Of a stretch of DNA of 64,000 nucleotides, positions 18,185-35,936 are shown in pieces. The stretch is taken from the NCBI GenBank assembly GCA_963705105.1, contig CAVPIW010000012.1, positions 160,001 to 224,000 of the forward strand. Direction: 5' to 3'. A program made the position numbers and the translations under genes. Under the pieces are notes generated by a model. It did no database searches. It was given only the letters and a program-made list of their open reading frames with translations, and was not told the DNA's origin. Each line of letters starts with the position of its first letter. Positions within the stretch are counted from its first letter, which is position 1. This DNA is from an uncultured Nitrospiraceae bacterium (lineage in GTDB: Bacteria > Nitrospirota > Thermodesulfovibrionia > Thermodesulfovibrionales > Dissulfurispiraceae).

Positions 18185-18431
18185 CCTTATTGTTGCAGTA
18201 GGATTTCCGGAAAGGCGGGGTGTGGGCGCCGAAAACCCTGCTGCGGCGACACCTTTGCCTTCCCATGAAGACGTTTTCAGGCAAAGGGCTGAAAAAAGTG
18301 ACCCTTTTACGGACACTCACACTGACACTGTTTTTCAGAGCGTTTCGCCCCGCCTTTTCATGCAACAGAAAGATTAACCTTGCCGTTGCATAAGCCCCGC
18401 CTTTCCCGGGAGTGTGTTGCAACGATAAGGT
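18183..18431 (+). repeat. Family A full copy (18183-18375) followed directly by a mini copy (18376-18431)
   Basis: AACCTTATTGTTGCA...TGCAACAGAAAGATT then AACCTTGCCGTTGCA...TTGCAACGATAAGGT. Confidence 0.9.
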
Positions 18432-18475
18432 AAACAATCATGCTCGCTGCAAAATATTTGGACAGGGGTGAAACT

Positions 18476-21049: not shown

Positions 21050-21190
21050 GTTGTCCTCCCTATTAAAGAATTCGCAAGCCTCGCCCCTTTCACGCCGATG
21101 CATCCGGGTTTCGGTCTTCCTGGCGCTGTGCATCGGCGCAGGCGGGAACTTCCGGTCTCTCTCCAGAGCATCCCTCAGAATATCACATTC

Positions 21191-21388
21191 ACATTATCGC
21201 TGCAATACACTCCCGGGAAAGGCGGGGCTGGGGTGAATGCGCCGAAAACCCTGCTGCGGCGACACCTTTGCCTTCCCATGAAGACGTTTTCAGGCAAAAG
21301 GCTGAAAAAGGTGACCCTTTTACGGACACTCACAATGACACTGTTTTTCAGAGCGCTTCGCCCCGCCTTTCCATGCAACAGGAAGGTT
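21191..21388 (+). repeat. Family A full copy
   Basis: Closely similar to the 18183 and 30666 copies. Confidence 0.9.
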
Positions 21389-21554
21389 CAGTAACGCGGA
21401 GGTGGTTGAGTTCTCGCAAAGAAACAAGGAGTTCGTCCCAGTCTTGACCGTCATGTCGATGCCGGGCTTCCTGCGGTTTTCAGGGTACAGGGTTGGAGAA
21501 GAATGACTCTTATATGGTACATTTAAAGAAAGTGACAATTGGGAAGGGAGCATT

Positions 21555-21908
21555 ATGGGAAATTTTGTCTACAAGGAATACACGCCGGAGGAGAGCGAGA
21601 TATACGAGGCGGCGCTCATGCAGATAAAGAAGTCGGTGAAGGACGGGTTGCCGTTCCACGATGCCTGCACCGCCGTCTGTATCGAAGATACGGAACTGAA
21701 AAGCTTCATCGTTTCCGACGCCCTGAAGATCCTCATCGCGGAGCTCCACTTCGTGGGGAATCTTCCCCTTGATAAAGTGGGCGAACTCCTCTGTTTGACA
21801 AGAACGGAGATCGGCACTGCCGTGAAAGAGATGCTCGAAGATGTGGGGATATCCTCGGCTGAGATGTTCAAGAAGCTCAACCCGGACAGCCCGATCGGCA
21901 ACGCATAG
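21555..21908 (+). CDS. Hypothetical protein
   Basis: GGGAG RBS; first gene of a tightly packed operon. Confidence 0.8.
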   Translation: MGNFVYKEYTPEESEIYEAALMQIKKSVKDGLPFHDACTAVCIEDTELKSFIVSDALKILIAELHFVGNLPLDKVGELLCLTRTEIGTAVKEMLEDVGISSAEMFKKLNPDSPIGNA

Positions 21909-21913
21909 GAGGT

Positions 21914-22177
21914 GTGATGGGAGATCAGAACAAGAGAGTCAGGGTTTACGGTCTTACAACGTGCCCGTCCTGCAAGAGGGTGAAAAAATACCTCGAAGAG
22001 CAGGGCGTCCAGTTCGAATACATCGAAGTCGATGCCCTTGACAGCGGCGAGCAGTGGCTCAAGACAAAGGAGCTGAAGCAATACAATCCGCAGGGCACCT
22101 ACCCGACCGTCATTGTCGAGGATGTCATCCTCGGCCTTGATGAGGCAGGACTGAAAAAGGCCCTGAACCTGTCATGA
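21914..22177 (+). CDS. Glutaredoxin-like protein
   Basis: CPSC motif and cis-Pro motif YPTV. Confidence 0.9.
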   Translation: MMGDQNKRVRVYGLTTCPSCKRVKKYLEEQGVQFEYIEVDALDSGEQWLKTKELKQYNPQGTYPTVIVEDVILGLDEAGLKKALNLS

Positions 22178-22503
22178 CACCGGAAAGGCTTTTTGAAGTC
22201 CTGACGAAATACGCCCAATCCAAGGGCACGGAGCTGAACGCCGACAAGGAGTTTGTGATGGAGATCCTCATGGGTCTTCTGAAGAATGAAGAGCGGTACG
22301 GCTACCGGTCCTGTCCCTGCCGTCTCGCAACGGGGTTGAAAGAAAAGGATGCCGACATCATCTGTCCCTGTGCATACAAGGATGCCGATGTGGCGGAGTA
22401 TGGCAGCTGCTACTGCGCGCTCTATGTATCAAAGGAATGGAATGCCGGCTCGGTCGAGCACGTTTTCGTGCCCGAGAGAAGACCGCTGGATAAAATGAAG
22501 TGA
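22174..22503 (+). CDS. Ferredoxin:thioredoxin reductase catalytic subunit
   Basis: CPC...CPC...CYC motifs. Confidence 0.92.
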   Translation: MTPERLFEVLTKYAQSKGTELNADKEFVMEILMGLLKNEERYGYRSCPCRLATGLKEKDADIICPCAYKDADVAEYGSCYCALYVSKEWNAGSVEHVFVPERRPLDKMK

Positions 22504-22527
22504 ACCCACAGGGGAGGAAGTGACGTT

Positions 22528-22899
22528 ATGATGTTTCAAGATCTGTTGACGTTCAAAGATGTCAAGGACGAGCCTTTTATCATTGAGCATGTTCTCTGGG
22601 ATATGGAGCCGAAGTGCCTCATGGCGCCGCGTATTAAAACGACGGACAAAGGCTCGGAATTGCGTGAGCCGATCAAGGGTTACATCTTTTATATCGACAC
22701 GATGGGCGATAAGCTGCAGCTTCTCCTCATCCGCCATACCGCCGCTGAATACGGCGAGACCCTCGCCCAGGTGGACGAGGCGCCTGAAGAACTCCTTGCA
22801 GAGGCCGTCGAGGAGGGCAAGGAAAAGATGTGCTTCGGCATGTGTCCGCTGAACGATAAGGTCAAGTCCTGGCTCAAGAAAGAACTGGGCGTGCAATAA
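22528..22899 (+). CDS. Hypothetical protein
   Basis: GGAGG RBS; in operon. Confidence 0.8.
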   Translation: MMFQDLLTFKDVKDEPFIIEHVLWDMEPKCLMAPRIKTTDKGSELREPIKGYIFYIDTMGDKLQLLLIRHTAAEYGETLAQVDEAPEELLAEAVEEGKEKMCFGMCPLNDKVKSWLKKELGVQ

Positions 22900-22975
22900 C
22901 CGCTCCGTCCCGGACAGGGAAAGCCGGCCGGAGGTCCCGCTGTTTCTTTGCGGCGGCATCTCCGGCCGCAACATT

Positions 22976-24109
22976 ATGATGGTTCACAGCCTCTACATCC
23001 ATATCCCCTTCTGCCTCAGGAAATGCCCCTACTGTGACTTCTGCTCCGTCCCCTATGACGAAGAACCGGCCCGCCGCACCATCGCAGCCGTCATGCGTGA
23101 ACTGGAAATGCGGAGCCGCGACGCCTGCGAGCTTTCGACGGTCTACATCGGCGGCGGCACGCCGACGATCGTCCCGGCCTCTGAACTGATCAGACTCATA
23201 GGCTCGGTCAGGGACTATTACCGCGTCGCGCCTGATGCCGAAATTACTGTCGAAGCGAACCCGGGCACCGTAACGAATGATTCCGTCAGGGCCCTTGCCG
23301 GTGCCGGCATCAACCGGTTCAGCCTCGGTGTCCAGTCCTTCGACGACGGTGAACTGAAAGCACTCGGGAGAATATACGGCTCCGGTGATGTCCTGAGCGC
23401 TGTCGACGCCGTGCGAGGCGCGGGAATCCGGAACCTGAGCCTCGACCTCATGTACGGCATCCCGGGGCAGACCCGGGATGCCTGGTCCGCCCATATCTGC
23501 AAAGCGATCGGTCTTGGCCCGGAACACATCTCGACCTATGAGCTGACCGTCGAACCGGGTACCCCACTTGAAGTCGCCGTGTCAAAGGGCCGGACGGAGA
23601 AACCCGGCGACGACACGATCGTTGCCATGTACGAAGACGTCATCGACAGGCTGACCGCCGCCGGCTACCGTCATTATGAGATCTCCAACTTCGCCAAACC
23701 CGGTTTCGGGTGCCGTCACAACATCAACTACTGGAACAGGGGGGAATACATCGGCGCCGGCGCCGGCGCCCACAGTTTCATCAACGGCAGGAGGATCAGG
23801 AACTTCTCGCGCATCGATCGATACAACGAAGCCCTGGAGCATGGGCGTTTACCTGTCGAAGAGGAGACGGAGACGGGGCGAGTCGATGCGATCAAGGAGT
23901 TTATCATGCTCGGTTTGAGGAAGACGGGGGGTGTGGATCTGAGACTGTGCAGAGCGGAATTCGGCTTTGATCTGGCCGGGTCCTGCGCCACGATGATCGG
24001 CCAGGGGCTGATGACGACAGGGGACGGCTTCATCAGGCTCACCAGGAAAGGGATCATTCTTTCAAACAGCGTCATCGCCGAGCTTTTCCGGGCAGCAGAG
24101 AAAACGTAG
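22976..24109 (+). CDS. hemW: Radical SAM heme chaperone HemW (HemN-like)
   Basis: LYIHIPFC..KCPYCDF, GGGTP, YEISNF, HN..YW. Confidence 0.9.
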   Translation: MMVHSLYIHIPFCLRKCPYCDFCSVPYDEEPARRTIAAVMRELEMRSRDACELSTVYIGGGTPTIVPASELIRLIGSVRDYYRVAPDAEITVEANPGTVTNDSVRALAGAGINRFSLGVQSFDDGELKALGRIYGSGDVLSAVDAVRGAGIRNLSLDLMYGIPGQTRDAWSAHICKAIGLGPEHISTYELTVEPGTPLEVAVSKGRTEKPGDDTIVAMYEDVIDRLTAAGYRHYEISNFAKPGFGCRHNINYWNRGEYIGAGAGAHSFINGRRIRNFSRIDRYNEALEHGRLPVEEETETGRVDAIKEFIMLGLRKTGGVDLRLCRAEFGFDLAGSCATMIGQGLMTTGDGFIRLTRKGIILSNSVIAELFRAAEKT

Positions 24110-24395: not shown

Positions 24396-25994
24396 TTATT
24401 TCTTGGCAGTTTTTATGTCCATCCAGCAGAAGGGGTCACGCTCCGCGAAGATATCCAACCCATAACTGTACGAGACGGCGAGGCATCCTCCGCAGGCGGC
24501 CCTGACGGGGCAGCCGCTGCAGGCGGCGCATCCGTCCCGGTAGCGCCGGGCCTCCGGAGAATCGAATATTTCAAGCAGGCTTTGTTCATAGATGTTGCCG
24601 ATCAAGGAGGGCAGCTTCCTGCAGGCGTGGACCTCTCCGTCGGCGAGGACGGCAACGAAATTGAAAGCCGCGCCGCACCCGTAGCCGGTGCAGCCGCCGA
24701 ACAGCTCCAGGTCGTCGTTATATCGCAGAATATTGATGAGATTGTCCTTGAACTCGATCACGGGATTTTCCTGGGCGGCCATAACGAACTCGTCGAGGAA
24801 CGCCCTGTACTCTTCCGGATCAGGGAGCTGCAGGTTCGCCCCCTCGCCCACCATGGACAGGCGGTTGAAGAGGAACGAGTCCGCCTTCCCTCTCAGCATC
24901 TCTGCAAGGGGTATGATCTCATGCATGTTGTCCCGCGTCAGGGTGAGCATGACCCGTGAGCGGACGCCCAGGTCACGCAGGAGGGCGAGGAATACCTCCA
25001 TCCGCGCAAAATGGCCTTTGCCGCGCATGTAATCGTTGTGTTCGGGCAGACCTTCCAGACTGACCTGGTAGAAGGAAGGGTGCTGAATGGCGATCAGTTT
25101 CTCCATCTGACGCCGTGTGGCAGGATTGCCGAGAATGGCCGTCAGAAAGCCGCGGTCGGCGGCTGCACGGTAGATGTCGTAGAACCGGGGGTGGAGAAAT
25201 GGATTGCCGCCCGTAAAAGACACGGCGCCGGTGACGCTCTTTTTTCCCGCAAAGAGCCTGAGGTCATCGAGCACGCCTATGGCCTGCTCCAGCGTCGGCT
25301 TTTGGCGGTCGCTGCGGTCGTAGCAATGCCTGCACCTCAGGTCACAGGCCTGCGTGATGTGCCACTGCAGGGTGAAGACATCCGTGCAGAGGAGGGCGTC
25401 GTCAACGGGATGACCAGGGGCGAGGATCCGCGGGTCACGCCTGATCAGTGGGGGAGGCGTGAGGAGGATGCCGGCGGAGACGGCATCGTCGATGACCCTG
25501 TCGATGATCCTCGGGGGAAGGCCTTCGGCCCGGGCGACGTCGGCCGGGTCGAGACCTTCGGCGACGATCTTGAGGGCAAGGAGGTCCCTGTCAGAAGCGG
25601 GTCTCATGCGGGCCTCACCGGTCCCTGCGTTTTTCCACAGGAGGACCAGTTCCTCTCCACGCACGGGGACCTCCCCTTTACCTTTCATCATGACAAAATC
25701 GGCGAGGCCGCGCCACGACAAGGGGAGCAGACGGAGACTCGGATTGACCGTCATCCCGTCGACGGCGACGTGTATCTCGGCATGTTGGAGAGCTTTAAGA
25801 TGAAATTCGAGGCGTGAAAGGTCCGCCAGGAATCCGGGCAATGCGACGTCGACCCGCCGGGCCAGTATCTCCCGGAACTCGTCGGGATCTAACGCCTGAG
25901 AATGTCCGCCGAAAAGCTGCTCCCAGAGATCAGGGCCTATGACGGTGCGGCAGACAGGGAATGAATCGTCGGGCTGCAGGTTATCCATTGTCAT
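24396..25994 (-). CDS. sbtM: Radical SAM/SPASM peptide maturase, SbtM (selenobiotic / thio(seleno)oxazole RiPP) type
   Basis: FTLQWHITQACDLRCRHCY; SPASM region GGCTGYGCGAAFNF..CRK..CAACSGC...CGGC..DPFC; long N-terminal extension; directly downstream of a UGA-containing precursor. Confidence 0.88.
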   Translation of the reverse strand: MTMDNLQPDDSFPVCRTVIGPDLWEQLFGGHSQALDPDEFREILARRVDVALPGFLADLSRLEFHLKALQHAEIHVAVDGMTVNPSLRLLPLSWRGLADFVMMKGKGEVPVRGEELVLLWKNAGTGEARMRPASDRDLLALKIVAEGLDPADVARAEGLPPRIIDRVIDDAVSAGILLTPPPLIRRDPRILAPGHPVDDALLCTDVFTLQWHITQACDLRCRHCYDRSDRQKPTLEQAIGVLDDLRLFAGKKSVTGAVSFTGGNPFLHPRFYDIYRAAADRGFLTAILGNPATRRQMEKLIAIQHPSFYQVSLEGLPEHNDYMRGKGHFARMEVFLALLRDLGVRSRVMLTLTRDNMHEIIPLAEMLRGKADSFLFNRLSMVGEGANLQLPDPEEYRAFLDEFVMAAQENPVIEFKDNLINILRYNDDLELFGGCTGYGCGAAFNFVAVLADGEVHACRKLPSLIGNIYEQSLLEIFDSPEARRYRDGCAACSGCPVRAACGGCLAVSYSYGLDIFAERDPFCWMDIKTAKK

Positions 25995-26077
25995 ATAGAA
26001 CGGGAAGAGGCCCGTTCAGGGAACGGGCCCCGGGTGTGTATCAGTCTGGCGAGTGCGAACCGCACTCGGCTGTCATC

Positions 26078-26380
26078 CTATCAACTGCTCTTCGGTGTCT
26101 TTTCCTCCGCAGAACCGGTCGACTTCTTCTCTTCATCGGACTTACCGGGCTGCGCAGGCTTCTTGTCCTTCTCTTTTTCTTCGGTGCTCCCGGCACCCTG
26201 CTGGGAGCCGCCTCAACCGGATTGAGCGGGCTTTTTCTCAGTGCCGCCGGCACTGGGCTGTCCGCTGCCTCAGCCGCTCTGGCTGGCAGCGTAGCTGTCC
26301 GTCGGGCCGAGGTTCGCACCGGCAATCAGGCTCGCGATTCCGACACCTGCAAGGATCTTCATCAGATCGCTCTTGTCCAT
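26078..26380 (-). CDS. sbtA: Selenocysteine-containing RiPP precursor, SbtA type (in-frame UGA at codons 37, 56 and 100)
   Basis: GGAGGTG RBS; my translation MDKSDLMKILAGVGIASLIAGANLGPTDSYAASQSG-U-GSGQPSAGGTEKKPAQSG-U-GGSQQGAGSTEEKEKDKKPAQPGKSDEEKKSTGSAEEKTPKSS-UGA-UAG; absent from the ORF track. Confidence 0.85.
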
Positions 26381-26586
26381 TGTTCACCTCCCTTGCTCAG
26401 AATTGAAATGCTCCGCCTGTGCCGAAGGCACGGCGCTCCGTCTTCCCTGATGATCGGCCGGTATGGGAGAAAAAGGTCGACTTTCCAGATGATGGAATGT
26501 GATACCCCATATTAATGCCGGCCCGATCCCGGCGACTTGTCTCTATAGTACAGGAACCGTGATGAAAATTTCCCATTCACAATCCC

Positions 26587-27072
26587 TCATCCCTCGACGA
26601 TGCCGCGCTCTTCCCACATAAACCAGTTTCCACTATCGTAGAGATAGGAGTACGTGTTCTGAAAGATGGCGAAATGCTCCTCTTCGTCCTTGACGAGGCA
26701 TTCGAAAAAGGCCCTTTCAGTCGGAGAGGAGGCCGCGGCAAGGGCCGTCCTGTAAAAGTCGATCGCTTCTTTCTCCATCGTCATGGCGGTCTCGAGTGCG
26801 GAGATTTCGTCGGCCGTCGAAGCGACCTGTTGCAGCATCGTTTCTTTGTGCTGCTCAAATATCTCCTTCATGTCCTCCAGTGGTGTCGCATCGGAGGGTT
26901 TGAATTCGCCTCCCCGCGAGACCTGGATCGCGCACTCCTTGTGGTATTGCTCATCTTCAGCGATACTGAGAAACATCTTTTTCCCGACGGGGTTGCTCGT
27001 CTTCTCCGCGCATTTCCTGTAAAAATCGATTGCCTCCTGCTCCATCTTCATTGCCATTTCAACAGTGTCCAT
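26587..27072 (-). CDS. Rubrerythrin/ferritin-like di-iron protein
   Basis: Duplicated AM.ME.EAIDFY...E..H motifs; GGGAGG RBS. Confidence 0.9.
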   Translation of the reverse strand: MDTVEMAMKMEQEAIDFYRKCAEKTSNPVGKKMFLSIAEDEQYHKECAIQVSRGGEFKPSDATPLEDMKEIFEQHKETMLQQVASTADEISALETAMTMEKEAIDFYRTALAAASSPTERAFFECLVKDEEEHFAIFQNTYSYLYDSGNWFMWEERGIVEG

Positions 27073-27449
27073 CGCTTTTCCTCCCAGATAAAGCGTTTTC
27101 ACGCACCAAACTCGGTTGCCGTCCTGACCGAATCGCCGGCGTCCAAAATAATCTGACACGACGATAGGGCATGATTTCTTTGCAAAATGTACCACCTTTG
27201 CGCTTGTGCATGCCTTGTTATGAAGATACAGGGTATCGCACGTTCACCTGTGCGGCTCCCCGACCGCTTCCGCCTCCGACTCCCGCCGCCGTGAAGATTA
27301 CCAGTGAAATCTTCTTCAGAAACCAAACTCCATCCTCGCTTTCAAGGTTTTGCCGTCAGCAATTCCGGACGCCGGCATGACCGGATATAGGTCTTCTTTC
27401 CAGCGCCACCATGTATAATTATACAGAATGCGAGGCGACAGGAGGTATC

Positions 27450-30612: not shown

Positions 30613-30665
30613 TATGGATTCTCCCCTTTCCTCTCAGAATGCAGAACAGACAAACATATAATATT

Positions 30666-30864
30666 AAACCTTATCGTTGCAATACACTTCCGGGAAAGGC
30701 GGGGCGTATGCGCCGAAAACCTTGATGCGGCCACACCTTTGCCTTCCCATGAAGACGTTTTCAGGCAAACGGCTGAAAAAGGTGACCCTTTTACGGACAC
30801 TCACACTGACACTGACACTGTTTTCAGCGCGTTTCGCCACGCCTTTCCATGCAACTACAATGTA
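30666..30864 (+). repeat. Family A full copy (reference copy)
   Basis: AAACCTTATCGTTGCAATACACTTCCGGGAAAGGCGGGGCG...CGCCACGCCTTTCCATGCAAC. Confidence 0.9.
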
Positions 30865-31030
30865 AAGTGTACCCGATAATCGCCGGAGATTCAAAAGCAC
30901 ATCCCTGCTGAGCGATGCCGGGGCCTCACATCAATGGGGGAGGCTCCGTGTGGCGGACATCACGAGGCATCACGTTGAGGGTACCAGTGAATTGTTGCTT
31001 CAGAAAAGAGCTATGAGCTAAGGGCGGTGC

Positions 31031-31470: not shown

Positions 31471-31644
31471 TTGCAGTTTCAATGAGGTTTCAGTTATTTT
31501 GATCCATCTGCCTTGCGGGAAAGCCTTGTAAAAGATGTGCATGGTGCGCGTGCAGAAGCAACGGCTGCGCGTCTCTGTGCCGGAAGATCTCATGGTCGCA
31601 GTATGGTGCGTCACCACAAAGGCGGGGTGATAGGAAAGGAGGGC

Positions 31645-34233
31645 ATGATGGAATGCAGTCGCAGGGTTTTTCTCAGGGGAATCGCTGCTTTGGGCGGTAT
31701 GGCCGCTCTTTCCGACATGGGCGCCCTGGCCCGGGCTGTCGAGAGGGCATCGGGAAAAGTCGGCGATCTGCCGGCTGAAGTCAGACACGTAAAGACGACC
31801 TGCGTGCATTGTGTCGTCTATTGCGGTATCGACGTCACCGTCAGGAACGGGGTGATCCAGGCCATATATCCTGATGCGGAGCGCGCCCCGTACTTTAATC
31901 GCGGTATATGTCCCAAAGGTGTCGCCGGTCTCTTCAACACGTATAATCCCTACCGCCTGAAGAGACCGCTCAAAAGAACCAACCCGAAGAAGGGACGCGA
32001 TGAAGATCCGGGGTGGGTGGAGATATCATGGGATGAGGCTTTCGACACGATCGCGGAAAGACTGAAAAAGATCCGGGCGGAAAACCCGGCGAAGCTCGTC
32101 TGGCAGGACGGGCAGGGGAGATACCTGTCCAATGCGCAGCCCCTTGCCGCTTTTTGCGCGGCTTTCGGGACACCCAATTTCATTCATCGCACCACGCTCT
32201 GTATTGCATCGAGGAATATCGCCGATCAGCTTACATGGGGTTCCTTCACGATTCTGCCCGATCTCCAGCACGCCAACCTGCTCCTGAACTTCGGATCAAC
32301 GTACTACGAAGGTGAGCAATGGGCACGGTGGCTGGATTACAACACCGCGTTGGCGAGGGATCGCGGCATGAAGACGATCGTCTTTGATCCCCGGATGTCT
32401 GTGAATGCGGCGAAGGCTGATGAATGGGTCCCTGTCAGGCCCGGGTCCGATGCGGCTCTCATCCTTGCGATGGCGAAGCTCCTGATCGACTCCGGCAACA
32501 TAGATGAGGACTTTCTCATCACCTATACGAACGCGCCCGAGCTGGTCGGGACAGACGGCGCCGTCCTGAAGGACCCTCAGGGGAAGTCGCTGGTCTTTGA
32601 CGCTGCCACGAAGAGCATCAAACCCCTCGCTGATGACGTCAAGCCTGCGTTAAAGGGATCTTTCGCCTACAATGGCGCTGCGGTGAGAACGGCGTTCCAG
32701 GTATTTATCGATAGCCTCAACGGGGTATCGCCCGAGTATGCGGAGAACGTGACGGGAGTGCCGGCATCGACAATACGGCGCATCACAGATGAGGTCGCCA
32801 GGCAGGCAAGGATCGGCTCGACGATCGATCTCGACGGGCAGCGATTGAGGCACAGGCCCGTCGCCGTCCATACCTTCCGCGGTTTGACGGCACGGCAGCA
32901 CGGCGTGCAGAACTGGCGGGCGGGGATAGTGCTGGAAATGCTCCTCGGAGGTCTTGATGCCGTCGGGGGCATGATCGTTTTTAATCCGAACAGCACACCA
33001 AAGACCCTTGAGCCGTCGAATGCCGAATACCCGCCACGCCGCGTCGATCTGGCCGGCAGCATTTACTTTCCGCATGCGACGCAGGACGTCGGTCAACAGG
33101 TGAACCTCTCACTCCTCGATCCGAAGGGTTTCGGGCTGCCCTATGAACCGGAGATGCAGCTCATCTACGGCAGCAACAGGCCTTTTTCCGCTTCCGAATC
33201 GGCCAGGCAATTTGAGGGGATGAAAAGAACATACAATGTCGTCATCGACATCGTCATGACGGAAACGGCGTGGTTCGCCGACATCGTGCTGCCCGACGAC
33301 ACCTATCTGGAGGGCTGGCACTATTCCATGACCCGCTGGGCTGTCGATGCGCGCACCATGGCGATTCGCCAGCCCGTTGTGGACAATGTGTTCAAGATTC
33401 CCTACGAGGGTCTGACGATCCTCTGGGCGCTCGCAAAACGCGCCGGCTTCAGGGACGCCTACGCGGAAGAGCTCAACAGGAAGTGGGGCCTCAAGGAAAC
33501 AAAGTTCATACAGGGGAGAGATTACAACGCCCGTGAGGCCCTTGAGATCGTGTGGACGGAACTGACGAAGAAGGATTTCAGTGTGGCCCTGGAAAAAGGG
33601 TTCGTCGGAAGGAAGCTGAACGCCGCCGACCGTTATCTCAAGGGAGTGGAAGACAAGTTCAAGGGGCCGGGCAAGCCGAAGATGAAGTTTTACGCGGACC
33701 AGCTTGTCGGCTCCTATGAGAAGATCGCCGGCAACGTAAAGAAACACGGCGTCTCAAACCTCGATCTCGACGCATACAAAGTGGCGATGTCGCCGTTGCC
33801 CCTTAAGGAACACGCGTTTCCGGCGGCACATCGCAACAGGGATGACTACCCCTTTTATTTGATCACCCACAAGGTGATGCACCGGAACCAGTCGGGAAAT
33901 ACCTGCCTGAATCCGATACTCAATGCCCTCGGCGGCACAGACACCAACAGTGTGGCCATGAATCGCTCGACTGCGCAGAAGATGCAGATCAAGACCGGCG
34001 ACACCGTCGTCATCGAAACGAAGATCGGAAAGGTGAAGGGTGTGGCGAACGTCATCGAGGGTATACGTCCCGACACCGTTGCCGTATCGTATCACTACGG
34101 GCAATGGAGTCCCGGGCTTCCTGACTACGCGAAAACGGGTATCGACATCAACAGCGTTCTTGAATTGCGGCCCGATGTCATCTCGGGTATGAACTCGTTT
34201 AACGATACGAAGTGCAGGATTTACAAGGCATAG
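31645..34233 (+). CDS. Tat-exported molybdopterin oxidoreductase catalytic subunit (DMSO-reductase superfamily, Arr/Psr-like clade)
   Basis: SRRVFL Tat motif; CVHCVVYC...C Fe-S motif; KRTNPKKGRDEDPGWVEISWDEA; ADIVLPD.TYLE. Confidence 0.92.
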   Translation: MMECSRRVFLRGIAALGGMAALSDMGALARAVERASGKVGDLPAEVRHVKTTCVHCVVYCGIDVTVRNGVIQAIYPDAERAPYFNRGICPKGVAGLFNTYNPYRLKRPLKRTNPKKGRDEDPGWVEISWDEAFDTIAERLKKIRAENPAKLVWQDGQGRYLSNAQPLAAFCAAFGTPNFIHRTTLCIASRNIADQLTWGSFTILPDLQHANLLLNFGSTYYEGEQWARWLDYNTALARDRGMKTIVFDPRMSVNAAKADEWVPVRPGSDAALILAMAKLLIDSGNIDEDFLITYTNAPELVGTDGAVLKDPQGKSLVFDAATKSIKPLADDVKPALKGSFAYNGAAVRTAFQVFIDSLNGVSPEYAENVTGVPASTIRRITDEVARQARIGSTIDLDGQRLRHRPVAVHTFRGLTARQHGVQNWRAGIVLEMLLGGLDAVGGMIVFNPNSTPKTLEPSNAEYPPRRVDLAGSIYFPHATQDVGQQVNLSLLDPKGFGLPYEPEMQLIYGSNRPFSASESARQFEGMKRTYNVVIDIVMTETAWFADIVLPDDTYLEGWHYSMTRWAVDARTMAIRQPVVDNVFKIPYEGLTILWALAKRAGFRDAYAEELNRKWGLKETKFIQGRDYNAREALEIVWTELTKKDFSVALEKGFVGRKLNAADRYLKGVEDKFKGPGKPKMKFYADQLVGSYEKIAGNVKKHGVSNLDLDAYKVAMSPLPLKEHAFPAAHRNRDDYPFYLITHKVMHRNQSGNTCLNPILNALGGTDTNSVAMNRSTAQKMQIKTGDTVVIETKIGKVKGVANVIEGIRPDTVAVSYHYGQWSPGLPDYAKTGIDINSVLELRPDVISGMNSFNDTKCRIYKA

Positions 34234-34243
34234 GGAGGAAGAC

Positions 34244-34933
34244 ATGCCCACATTCGTGCGATTGATAGACACCAAGAGGTGCATCGGATGCCGTACCTGC
34301 GTGGCCGCATGCATGGTCGAGAACCATTACACCCCGGGCTCTCCGTGGAATGTGCTTGTCGAGAAGGAGATGGGGTTTTACCCGAAGGTCAGGAAATTCT
34401 TCGCGACCATGGCGTGTATGCACTGCGAAGCGCCGGCGTGCAAGATGGCCTGTGACAAGGTGGGAGCATATGCCATAAACAGGAACGAGCATGGAGTGGT
34501 CCTCGTCGACTACGAAAAGTGCATCGGCTGCGGATACTGTGCAGCCGCCTGTCCCTATGGCGTCCCGCAGCTGAACGGTGAAATGCACCCGCTTTATCCG
34601 GGGCACTCGACGCCCTATGAGGCGATTGTCCCTTCCGACCGTCACCCGACTCACCGTAAGCGGCCCCGGGTGGTCGAAAAGTGCACGTCCTGCTGGCACA
34701 AACTCGAAAAGGCGGTTTCCCGCGGCAGGACGCATCTCGTGGGACAGGAGCAGGACTATACGCCTGCCTGTGATGTCGTCTGTCCCGTCCAGGCGCGTTT
34801 TTTCGGCGACCTTGATGATCCGGACAGCGAAGTTGCCAGGAGGATCAGGACGAGCGGGGCGACGCAACTGAAGAAGGAGTTCGGCACAGGGCCGCTGGTC
34901 TATTATGTGCTGGAAGGAGGTGACTCCCGATGA
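34244..34933 (+). CDS. Four-cluster 4Fe-4S electron-transfer subunit (DmsB/ArrB-like)
   Basis: CIGCRTC..AC, CMHC..PAC...C, CIGCGYC..AC, CTSC..AC...C. Confidence 0.93.
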   Translation: MPTFVRLIDTKRCIGCRTCVAACMVENHYTPGSPWNVLVEKEMGFYPKVRKFFATMACMHCEAPACKMACDKVGAYAINRNEHGVVLVDYEKCIGCGYCAAACPYGVPQLNGEMHPLYPGHSTPYEAIVPSDRHPTHRKRPRVVEKCTSCWHKLEKAVSRGRTHLVGQEQDYTPACDVVCPVQARFFGDLDDPDSEVARRIRTSGATQLKKEFGTGPLVYYVLEGGDSR

Positions 34934-35274
34934 AGAGCATCCTGTCCGGCCTGATGATCACGATGTGCATCGCTTCATTGGCTGTCGCGGCTGATCTGCA
35001 GACGACCGCCCAGGAGTCGCAGAAGGGGAAAACAGAGACGGGCGCGAAATACTCCATGGCCCCTGACGGGCGTTTCCATACGATTCATGGAAAGGTTGTC
35101 GGCATGGATTGCAGGAACTGCCATGTGGATTTCGACGGGAAAGACCTTTTCATTGTGAGGGGTGACAGGAAACTGCCCGCATCTCAGCCCGGTCACGTGC
35201 ACAAGAGCAGGTGTCTCGGATGCCACAGGGAAGGGGGAACGGCAACGTCCCTCTATGGCGCAACGTCAAAATGA
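34930..35274 (+). CDS. Periplasmic dihaem cytochrome c
   Basis: Signal peptide; CRNCH and CLGCH. Confidence 0.88.
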   Translation: MKSILSGLMITMCIASLAVAADLQTTAQESQKGKTETGAKYSMAPDGRFHTIHGKVVGMDCRNCHVDFDGKDLFIVRGDRKLPASQPGHVHKSRCLGCHREGGTATSLYGATSK

Positions 35275-35936
35275 CGGATCATTATTCTGACCAGTTATGC
35301 CGGCTCGCCCGGGCCAGGGCCGAGAGTTACTGGTGGTTGTCAAATCTCTACTTCGAGCTGCCGACGCCGGAAAAGGTCAGGGCCCTGAGGGAAAAAATCG
35401 AGGCCCTGGCTGACAGCACTCCCGATGCACTGACCGGTCACCTCCTGACGTTGAGATCGCTGTTTCAGGGAAGGGGTGATGATGAAATCGCAGACCGGCT
35501 GCTTCCCGAGCAAACGAGGCTTTTCGGCGGATTGCATCCTGCCTACGGTCCGCCGCCACCGTACGAATCGGTCTATCGAGGCGCTCAGTTCATGGGAGAG
35601 GTGACGCTGTCGGTGATAAGGGCTTTTCATGAGGCAGGGTTCGAACAGATCGAGACATCCGTGGGACCGGCGGACCATATTGTCTCAGAGCTGAAATTCA
35701 TGGCAGCCCTGTGTTTCAGGGAGCAGGAAGCCTGGGAAAGGGGAGAATCGGATAGGGCGCTTCAATGGGTGCTGCAGGAGAAGCGGTTCCTGGAAGATCA
35801 TATCATGAAATGGATACCGGCTTTTTGCGACGCCCTCAAGAAAAGCGCAAAAGAGCGGTATTTTGTCTGCCTCGCCGATTTGACGCGTGAGGCATGCGAA
35901 AGTGATACGGAGGCGGTGAATCATTTGTTGCAATGA
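35271..35936 (+). CDS. TorD/DmsD-family chaperone
   Basis: PPYESVY, DHIVSELKFM, FLEDHIMKW. Confidence 0.92.
   Translation: MTDHYSDQLCRLARARAESYWWLSNLYFELPTPEKVRALREKIEALADSTPDALTGHLLTLRSLFQGRGDDEIADRLLPEQTRLFGGLHPAYGPPPPYESVYRGAQFMGEVTLSVIRAFHEAGFEQIETSVGPADHIVSELKFMAALCFREQEAWERGESDRALQWVLQEKRFLEDHIMKWIPAFCDALKKSAKERYFVCLADLTREACESDTEAVNHLLQ

Follow-up and report, generated by a model that had tools for sequence, protein, structure and literature searches.

Within a 64,000-nucleotide stretch of DNA from an uncultured Nitrospiraceae bacterium (GenBank assembly GCA_963705105.1, contig CAVPIW010000012.1, positions 160,001 to 224,000; this whole stretch is called the window and is numbered from its first letter), an uncalled gene, sbtA, encodes a precursor peptide beside sbtM, the gene for a radical S-adenosylmethionine (SAM)/SPASM maturase. 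The locus is a real and ordinary member of the known SbtA/SbtM family, a thio(seleno)oxazole system of peptides that are ribosomally made and modified after translation (RiPPs), reportedly described by Haft and Basu in 2011 and by Lewis and co-workers in 2021. What is new here is a kinship between the front third of SbtM and the helper protein found in bufferin-type, copper-binding systems.

The sbtA and sbtM genes and their family

The sbtA gene lies on the minus strand, with an ATG at 26380 and no TAA or TAG for 100 codons until the TAG that ends at 26078. Three TGA codons stand in frame, at codons 37 (26272-26270), 56 (26215-26213) and 100 (26083-26081), the first two in the shared context Q-S-G-[TGA]-G; Cys codons are absent, and a Lys/Glu-rich tail closes with S-S-TGA-TAG. 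The ATG of sbtM, at 25994, is 84 nt past the end of the sbtA TAG. A first-pass annotation of the window had pointed out this gene with its GGAGGTG motif, TGA positions, closing S-S-TGA-TAG and 84-nt gap, and all of these are present in the sequence, as are the several cores, the lack of Cys codons and the length of ∼100 residues that it described. Its pairing of SbtA with SbtM also stands, both proteins scoring over the cut-offs of their models: SbtA reaches 30.7 bits against TIGR04081 at full length and 33.2 bits over its first 36 residues (cut-off 30.5, a narrow pass), and SbtM reaches 698.6 bits against TIGR04082 (cut-off 350), aligning to profile positions 2-515 of 516. What it overlooked was a lipoprotein-type paralogue on contig C17 of the same genome and the nature of the SbtM N-terminus, both described below. 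Pfam places Radical_SAM at residues 213-367 of SbtM and SPASM at 440-496, and C217, C221, C224 and eight more Cys residues are invariant among SbtM proteins. The features of the locus are as follows.

26385..26391, minus strand: ribosome-binding site GGAGGTG of sbtA, read from the sequence, its end 5 nt upstream of the ATG
26078..26380, minus strand: gene for the SbtA precursor, 100 codons and a closing TAG, with three TGA in frame (TIGR04081, 30.7 bits)
26288..26380, minus strand: leader, residues 1-31, signal-peptide-like, with predicted docking to a RiPP recognition element (RRE) (sequence reading and complex model)
26270..26272, minus strand: TGA codon 37, likely selenocysteine (Sec, U), S-G-U-G core 1
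26239..26255, minus strand: hairpin 1, like a Sec insertion sequence (SECIS), 7 bp, loop starting +22 nt from codon 37 (-11.3 kcal/mol; present in the minimum free energy fold)
26213..26215, minus strand: TGA codon 56, likely Sec, S-G-U-G core 2
26183..26197, minus strand: SECIS-like hairpin 2, 5 bp, loop starting +21 nt from codon 56 (-7.9 kcal/mol; the minimum free energy fold is an alternative pairing)
26081..26083, minus strand: TGA codon 100, likely C-terminal Sec (S-S-U), abutting the TAG
26050..26068, minus strand: SECIS-like hairpin 3, 8 bp, loop starting +21 nt from codon 100, entirely 3' untranslated (-12.3 kcal/mol)
26007..26031, minus strand: strong 11-bp hairpin between sbtA and sbtM (-20.8 kcal/mol, z -3.59)
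24396..25994, minus strand: sbtM, 532-residue radical SAM/SPASM maturase (TIGR04082)
25449..25985, minus strand: SbtM residues 4-182, a helical DUF2063 domain in shortened form together with an RRE (fold and profile homology to HvfC/BufC-type (PME1) partners of oxidative enzymes that depend on multinuclear non-heme iron (MNIOs))

To place the locus we assembled 91 sbtM loci: 2 from the host genome, 9 from relatives and 80 from a species-level collection. Homologues built like SbtA adjoin sbtM in 80 of these, as found with a leader profile that returned 79 distinct precursor sequences; two were set aside, one for what looks like a frameshift and one for a stretch of N, and eight were trimmed manually at a TGA taken as the stop, giving the 77 precursors used throughout. 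They are 54-131 residues long (median 100 for those without a lipobox), and Sec occupies 176 of their 221 core sites, Cys the other 45. At least two Sec are present in 62 of the 77, 52 of which have no core Cys, so that the all-Sec, multi-core architecture that the first-pass annotation took for an unusual variant is the family norm (52/77). That SbtA has "at least two SeCys" has indeed been published (PMC9204691), and a review gives "SGUG, 2 Sec" for the family (PMC13188914). The window pair thus resembles the described system in passing both models, in its S-G-U-G cores with SECIS-like hairpins, in having at least two Sec and in its adjacent radical SAM/SPASM gene. It does not differ in kind, the distinguishing marks being that the last Sec of its precursor is the last residue, as in 7 of the 77, and that the host has two sbtM paralogues. 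Among 61 relatives, selA is found in 59 and sbtM in 10. Cores with Cys only occur in 6 of the 77 precursors; the idea that such all-Cys precursors mark Sec-less hosts was rejected, since selA is present in 4 of the 5 such genomes tested.

The front third of SbtM

The alignment consensus suggested DUF2063 as a candidate for the SbtM N-terminus, and this was then tested by fold and by profile. In structure models with a predicted local distance difference test (pLDDT) score of 90 for full-length SbtM and 94 for residues 1-185 alone, residues 4-182 match NGO1945/3DEE (Z 12.1, root-mean-square deviation [rmsd] 3.7, 165 residues aligned) and TglI (Z 10.6, rmsd 4.2, 174 aligned), with a Foldseek E of 1.9e-6; the other top fold matches cover the RRE alone (residues 79-183, Z <=8.7). 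A search of the PDB by sequence with the N-terminal profile returned nothing significant, the link emerging by fold and by large-library profile search. The profile finds free-standing proteins of 234-260 residues at E 1e-31 to 1e-19; when 24 of these, chosen by length and match position, were tested, 23 passed the Pfam DUF2063 model and 23 matched HvfC below its cut-off, and one free-standing relative, from Corallococcus, is named as an HvfC/BufC-domain protein. Profile-profile comparison of the SbtM N-terminus with the free-standing group gives E 4e-44 over 179 columns. The SbtM N-terminus is therefore homologous to the DUF2063-RRE partner proteins of MNIO enzymes. Window SbtM itself falls short of the Pfam DUF2063 model, which 6 of 55 homologues match weakly, and the 19 SbtM modules cluster together among the free-standing partners in a rapid, unrooted tree, a topology that does not give the direction of the fusion. 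A metagenome scan with a single protein query yielded no match.

A model of the SbtA leader in complex with SbtM scores 0.64, the best of 3 controls scoring 0.02; the mark used for docking is one that 116 of 157 solved complexes attain, compared with 2 of 215 mismatched pairs. At least 91% of contacts are common to the docking runs, the partner has a pLDDT of at least 71, and the conserved leader residues L10, I15, L18, I19 and G21 are placed on SbtM residues 135-146, the contacting residues being conserved on the SbtM side as well. On the strength of this modeling we consider it likely that the SbtA leader binds the RRE of SbtM. Several points weigh against the wider reading set out below. 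The leading ∼55-60 residues of the partner protein are missing from SbtM, the docking was controlled with unrelated proteins rather than with other signal peptides, and the pass may mirror likeness to solved RRE-leader complexes; in bufferins, moreover, the signal peptide is dispensable for modification (PMC11626156).

DUF2063-RRE partners accompany signal-peptide precursors in MNIO systems (PMC12452194) and are said to be almost universally adjacent to MNIOs (PMC13097082). The free-standing group fits this description: at its metagenome loci an MNIO-like open reading frame (ORF) stands directly upstream in 13 of 13 cases, and of the five such ORFs tested against the BufB cut-off all four full-length ones pass. 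The eight MNIO-linked precursors that are not clipped by contig ends have, much as SbtA does, low-complexity linkers (of Ala, Gly, Glu, Lys and Thr) between repeated x-S/G-C-G/S cores that end near a terminal Lys-Lys, together with a lipobox, and weaker matches of the N-terminal profile are textbook Buf2 bufferin clusters. Homology between the SbtA leader and the MNIO-linked leaders was considered and set aside, because the SbtA leader profile, to the detriment of a common origin, does not recognize the MNIO-linked precursors above background; the two kinds of precursor thus share a build and no demonstrable ancestry. None of 50 SbtA sequences matches the DUF2282, Buf2 or EGKCG/HvfA NCBIfam models at E 0.05, no match to MNIO (DUF692, PF05114) is found in the 99% complete host genome, and none of the 61 relatives has an MNIO over the cut-off. 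In a side observation, eight loci (L140:195-2092, L141, L143, L144, L146, L147, L149 and L150) are operons of a precursor, a BufB-type MNIO and a DUF2063 protein. Their lipobox precursors score over the cut-off of none of the NCBIfam precursor models and may form a lipoprotein family of captophorins that is not yet catalogued.

The captophorins (bufferins, oxazolin and fontiphorin) combine an MNIO, a DUF2063-RRE (PME1) protein and a signal-peptide precursor to give a copper-associated 5-thiooxazole, and SbtA/SbtM resembles them as follows: the same ring is made on Cys; the DUF2063-RRE module, free-standing there and fused in SbtM, is homologous; the precursors have signal peptides, predicted ones in SbtA as judged by inspection and family pattern, some of lipoprotein type (about 16% of Buf2); and the cores are repeated in low-complexity linkers, as in the EGKCG type. 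Modified SbtA and bufferins also share the 305-nm band that accompanies the ring (PMC12538549, PMC13097082). The systems differ in that SbtM is a radical SAM/SPASM enzyme rather than an MNIO, with the partner fused and shortened, that SbtA uses Sec for Cys, that SbtA loci are without DoxX or an extracytoplasmic function (ECF) sigma factor and that the leaders are not detectably homologous. Available full-text literature, including the MNIO landscape and RRE papers, held no statement of a DUF2063-RRE module in SbtM, of signal-peptide or lipoprotein leaders in SbtA or of metal binding by SbtA (Haft and Basu 2011, Lewis 2021 and supplements lying outside this scope), and PMC10177961 has nothing on SbtM.

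UGA codons probably read as selenocysteine

The first-pass annotation had proposed that the TGA codons encode Sec, naming the Sec machinery, Cys at homologous positions and coding sequence beyond the first UGA as its checks, and each of these came out in its favor. The 99% complete host genome has tRNA-Sec, selA, selB and selD over the cut-offs, selD itself containing a TGA. In homologues, the 45 core Cys stand beside 176 core Sec in the same motifs, and the reading continues past the first UGA.

SECIS-like hairpins add to this evidence. The rule applied calls for a stem of at least 5 bp and a loop of 3-6 nt that includes a G and starts 15-28 nt past the codon. It is passed by 152 of the 176 core UGA codons in the 77 precursors, compared with 4 of the 45 core Cys codons and 1 of 44 lipobox Cys codons; ordinary TGA stops of long ORFs in the host genome pass in 88 of 1581 cases. 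For UGA codons at most five residues from the precursor end, where the hairpin is largely non-coding, the figure is 55 of 56. A G-A-G-S/G-like linker motif follows Sec in 88 of 114 cases and Cys in none of 33, and is therefore a footprint of the SECIS hairpin and not a protein motif. Six strain variants within the sbtA ORF, read by hand, spare the three TGAs, introduce no stop and leave the hairpin stems untouched. In four studies, RNA-library contigs span sbtA completely or for the most part, with 0-10 differing letters each, which is no proof of transcription; they provide no near-identical cover of sbtM, and these data cannot rank genes.

Some observations temper this picture. The single 48-nt segments behind the three codons are not exceptional folders (z -1.05, -2.86 and -1.53), and the SECIS-like hairpin of codon 56 has a rival in the lowest-energy fold, which pairs differently; because the segments fold unremarkably one by one, the support from the hairpins lies in their position and conservation. 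The hairpin rule was also fixed after the window hairpins were known, and many of the homologues are close kin. A plain stop at the first TGA, with sbtA yielding a 36-residue peptide, would agree with the many database proteins of the SbtA family that end there, but it is at odds with the Sec machinery, the hairpins, the exchange of Cys for UGA, the reading conserved beyond the UGA and the intact TGAs of the strain variants, and we regard it as extremely improbable. Codons 37 and 56 are, we are nearly certain, read as Sec.

The third UGA was left open by the first-pass annotation, which had recognized the S-S-TGA-TAG end. Precursors ending in UGA followed by TAA or TAG have a hairpin in 7 of 7 cases (the window and six others, from three lineages), whereas only 2 of 22 ordinary ORFs with TGA-then-stop ends do, and it is on this comparison that we judge codon 100, with high though somewhat lesser confidence, to be a C-terminal Sec. 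A likely C-terminal Sec with a 3'-untranslated SECIS element matters for annotation, since such UGA-stop ends get read as double stops.

Two further sequences deserve mention. The database SbtA P0003 has its UGA codons translated as Trp, a mis-annotation, and L009:1134-1412 retains a SECIS-like hairpin although the terminal core before it now has Cys, which points to a recent change from Sec to Cys.

Probable export and possible roles of the product

As judged from the sequence, the SbtA leader is hydrophobic at residues 9-25, with a predicted cut after S-Y-A, and L10, A11, L18 and G21 are near-invariant among precursors, every examined leader being hydrophobic. In 44 of the 77 precursors, including the host paralogue, a lipobox-like Cys stands at position 26-30, preceded by Gly in 41; the remaining 33, including that of the window, mostly have a polar stretch closing in an A-x-A-like site. 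The host genome, in which lgt is found, holds both types, the signal-peptidase-I type in the window and the lipobox type on contig C17. There, the second sbtM (about C17:55840-57381; 55% identical to window SbtM over 477 residues) accompanies a precursor (G000:C17:57794-58033, minus strand, equivalent to L005:3455-3694) of 79 residues with a lipobox-like L-Y-G-C and three UGA codons, each followed by a SECIS-like hairpin; it is a predicted lipid-anchored selenopeptide. A division of the maturases into two clades, one per leader type, was rejected, as the starred branches of the tree cannot be reconciled with fewer than 7-8 switches and both types occur together at two loci. DybA-type lipidated RiPPs (ChrH-subfamily MNIO; PMC13056109) likewise have a lipobox precursor that takes the ordinary lipoprotein pathway after cytoplasmic modification; their enzyme and product (a macrocycle) are different, and the parallel bears on the C17 paralogue, not on the window copy.

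Could the Cys at position 26-30 instead be another modified core, the N-terminus a mere RRE leader and the products cytoplasmic? The lipobox-like S-G-C does resemble an S-G-U core, and the leader, which the model docks on the RRE, shows more conservation than signal peptides usually do. But this Cys is encoded by TGC or TGT in 44 of 44 cases and never by TGA, even though 36 of these precursors are otherwise all-Sec and 80% of core codons are TGA; it is followed by Ala in 19 of 44 cases, compared with 3 of 176 for core Sec; and the residue at -3 is mostly V, L, I or A. We accordingly give cytoplasmic products little credence. Export through a signal peptide, proposed by the first-pass annotation and in keeping with the hydrophobic leaders and the lipobox pattern, appears probable, with the reservation that the n-region of the window leader has no net positive charge, which is atypical of a signal for the Sec secretion pathway. 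No neighbor gene recurs in more than 6 sbtM loci and no dedicated exporter or protease appears, making general secretion the simplest route; a search for conserved accessory genes at these loci found none.

SbtM forms a thio(seleno)oxazole at Gly-Cys/Sec (PMC9204691, PMC11002830), another SbtM having been described to carry out two rounds of H-abstraction from the Cys/Sec beta-carbon with loss of 4 Da; for most such systems, neither what they do nor what they finally produce is given as known (PMC9204691). By analogy, translation would put Sec into SbtA three times, SbtM would hold the leader on its DUF2063-RRE module and, by the chemistry of that other SbtM, would close each carbonyl before Sec (at Gly/Ser-Sec sites) into a 5-selenooxazole; the modified peptide would be exported, its signal peptide cut, and the periplasmic product would sequester copper or similar soft metal ions. 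That SbtA is modified in the host is very probable on this analogy. Because DUF2063-RRE partners go with signal-peptide precursors and copper-binding 5-thiooxazoles, all characterized cases making 5-thiooxazoles that are generally copper-binding (PMC13097082, PMC11626156), we favor periplasmic sequestration of copper or like ions, as a tentative proposal that stops short of being probable.

The neighborhood lends this proposal little help. Among the neighbor proteins scanned, 266 of 276 representatives, a Cus-like efflux system adjoins a single lineage (L023, L028 and L029), and a copper sensor, an ECF sigma/anti-sigma pair and DoxX do not recur among them; free copper is scarce in sulfidic habitats; and the window neighbors, which include ferritin/rubrerythrin-like, hemW, glutaredoxin and ferredoxin-thioredoxin reductase genes, equally suit a redox role. 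Such a role, with aromatic selenols made and exported in the same way and serving an anaerobe as periplasmic scavengers of peroxide or radicals without trapping metal, would account for the preference for Sec over Cys at 176 of 221 core sites and for these redox-type neighbors, and oxidative stress also induces 5-thiooxazole clusters (PMC13097082). Its regulatory argument is a perfect palindrome, ATAG-N7-CTAT, upstream of 12 of the 77 precursor genes (mean 0.5 and maximum 2 in shuffles), which overlaps the -10 region of a TTGACA promoter and is often repeated 31 bp downstream (examples are L013, L021, L027, L035, L061 and G000:C17:58112). The palindrome resembles operators of the OxyR/LysR type; neither a regulator nor a regulon was found for it. 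Yet it is absent upstream of window sbtA, picks out no peroxide-defense genes in the host genome or in 151 class members (the genome scan was swamped by AT-rich noise, with mixed genes downstream of the matches), and the ferritin-like neighbor does not recur at other sbtM loci; scavenging is, on balance, unlikely.

A sink or store, in which surplus selenide (or sulfur) is fixed in stable rings and moved out of the cytoplasm, would agree with several Sec in one short disordered peptide, with the SECIS-derived linker motif described above and with TauE/SafE exporters near three loci and a LysR gene near one. Cys-only cores, in genomes that mostly keep selA, argue against it, and neither a ring nor a lipid anchor would be needed for storage, so that we hold it to be distinctly unlikely. 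Going by the names "selenobiotic" and "selenobacteriocin", the product would be an antimicrobial or signal that is secreted, in line with the listing of the family as "Selenobacteriocin" (PMC13188914) and with the two-gene RiPP layout; with no recurring immunity, protease, transporter or receptor gene at sbtM loci, 44 of 77 precursors predicted to be lipid-anchored and linkers that vary freely in length and sequence, this seems more improbable still.

Other features of these loci are recorded for completeness. In L023, L028 and L029, which have all-Cys lipobox precursors, sbtM lies directly upstream of genes that encode an efflux protein of the outer membrane and a CusB-like protein carrying a heavy-metal-binding domain, and L029 has CbiM and DUF4198 upstream. 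In the window, the ferritin/rubrerythrin-like gene (26587-27156, minus strand) is directly upstream of sbtA on the same strand and is not found again at other sbtM loci. Genes at 21555-24109 (plus strand) for a hypothetical protein, glutaredoxin, the ferredoxin-thioredoxin reductase catalytic subunit, a second hypothetical protein and hemW converge on sbtM. A molybdopterin oxidoreductase cluster at 31513-35936 (plus strand) comprises a catalytic subunit, an Fe-S subunit, a small CxxCH protein and a TorD-like chaperone and passes no NCBIfam cut-off, its best matches being PhsA and ArrA/ArrB. Three similar intergenic stretches (about 18300-18440, 21130-21400 and 30620-30900, with near-identical spurious ORF translations), also found behind the C17 precursor, are likely a repeated element like a miniature inverted-repeat transposable element. 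The hairpin at 26007..26031 is a possible terminator or RNA-stabilizing stem; its U tail is weak, the terminator scan did not call it, and the promoter scan of the window gave no minus-strand site.

To return to copper sequestration, the reading as a whole, that is, a two-gene SbtA/SbtM locus with three Sec residues, selenooxazoles, export and sequestration of copper or another soft metal, is one that we put forward as plausible without yet calling it probable. SbtA/SbtM would be an oxygen-independent, selenium-using counterpart of bufferins and oxazolins, a radical SAM enzyme replacing the O2-dependent iron enzyme and the partner being fused. More tentatively than either of these proposals, the family may be an anaerobic selenium branch of the captophorins, in which an MNIO partner became fused to a radical SAM enzyme that makes the same rings without oxygen on Sec; the products would be selenooxazole metallophores, periplasmic or anchored in the membrane. 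As a member of its family the locus is ordinary, and the function of SbtA/SbtM has been open since the family was predicted; with the DUF2063-RRE homology, the leaders of signal-peptide and lipoprotein type and the ring in common, this comes down to a question that is cheap to answer, whether SbtA modified by SbtM binds Cu(I) in the periplasm. If the branch reading is true, a natural RiPP that bears selenium would have its first function, and a single module for gripping substrates would be seen to serve two unrelated chemistries with the same ring as their outcome.

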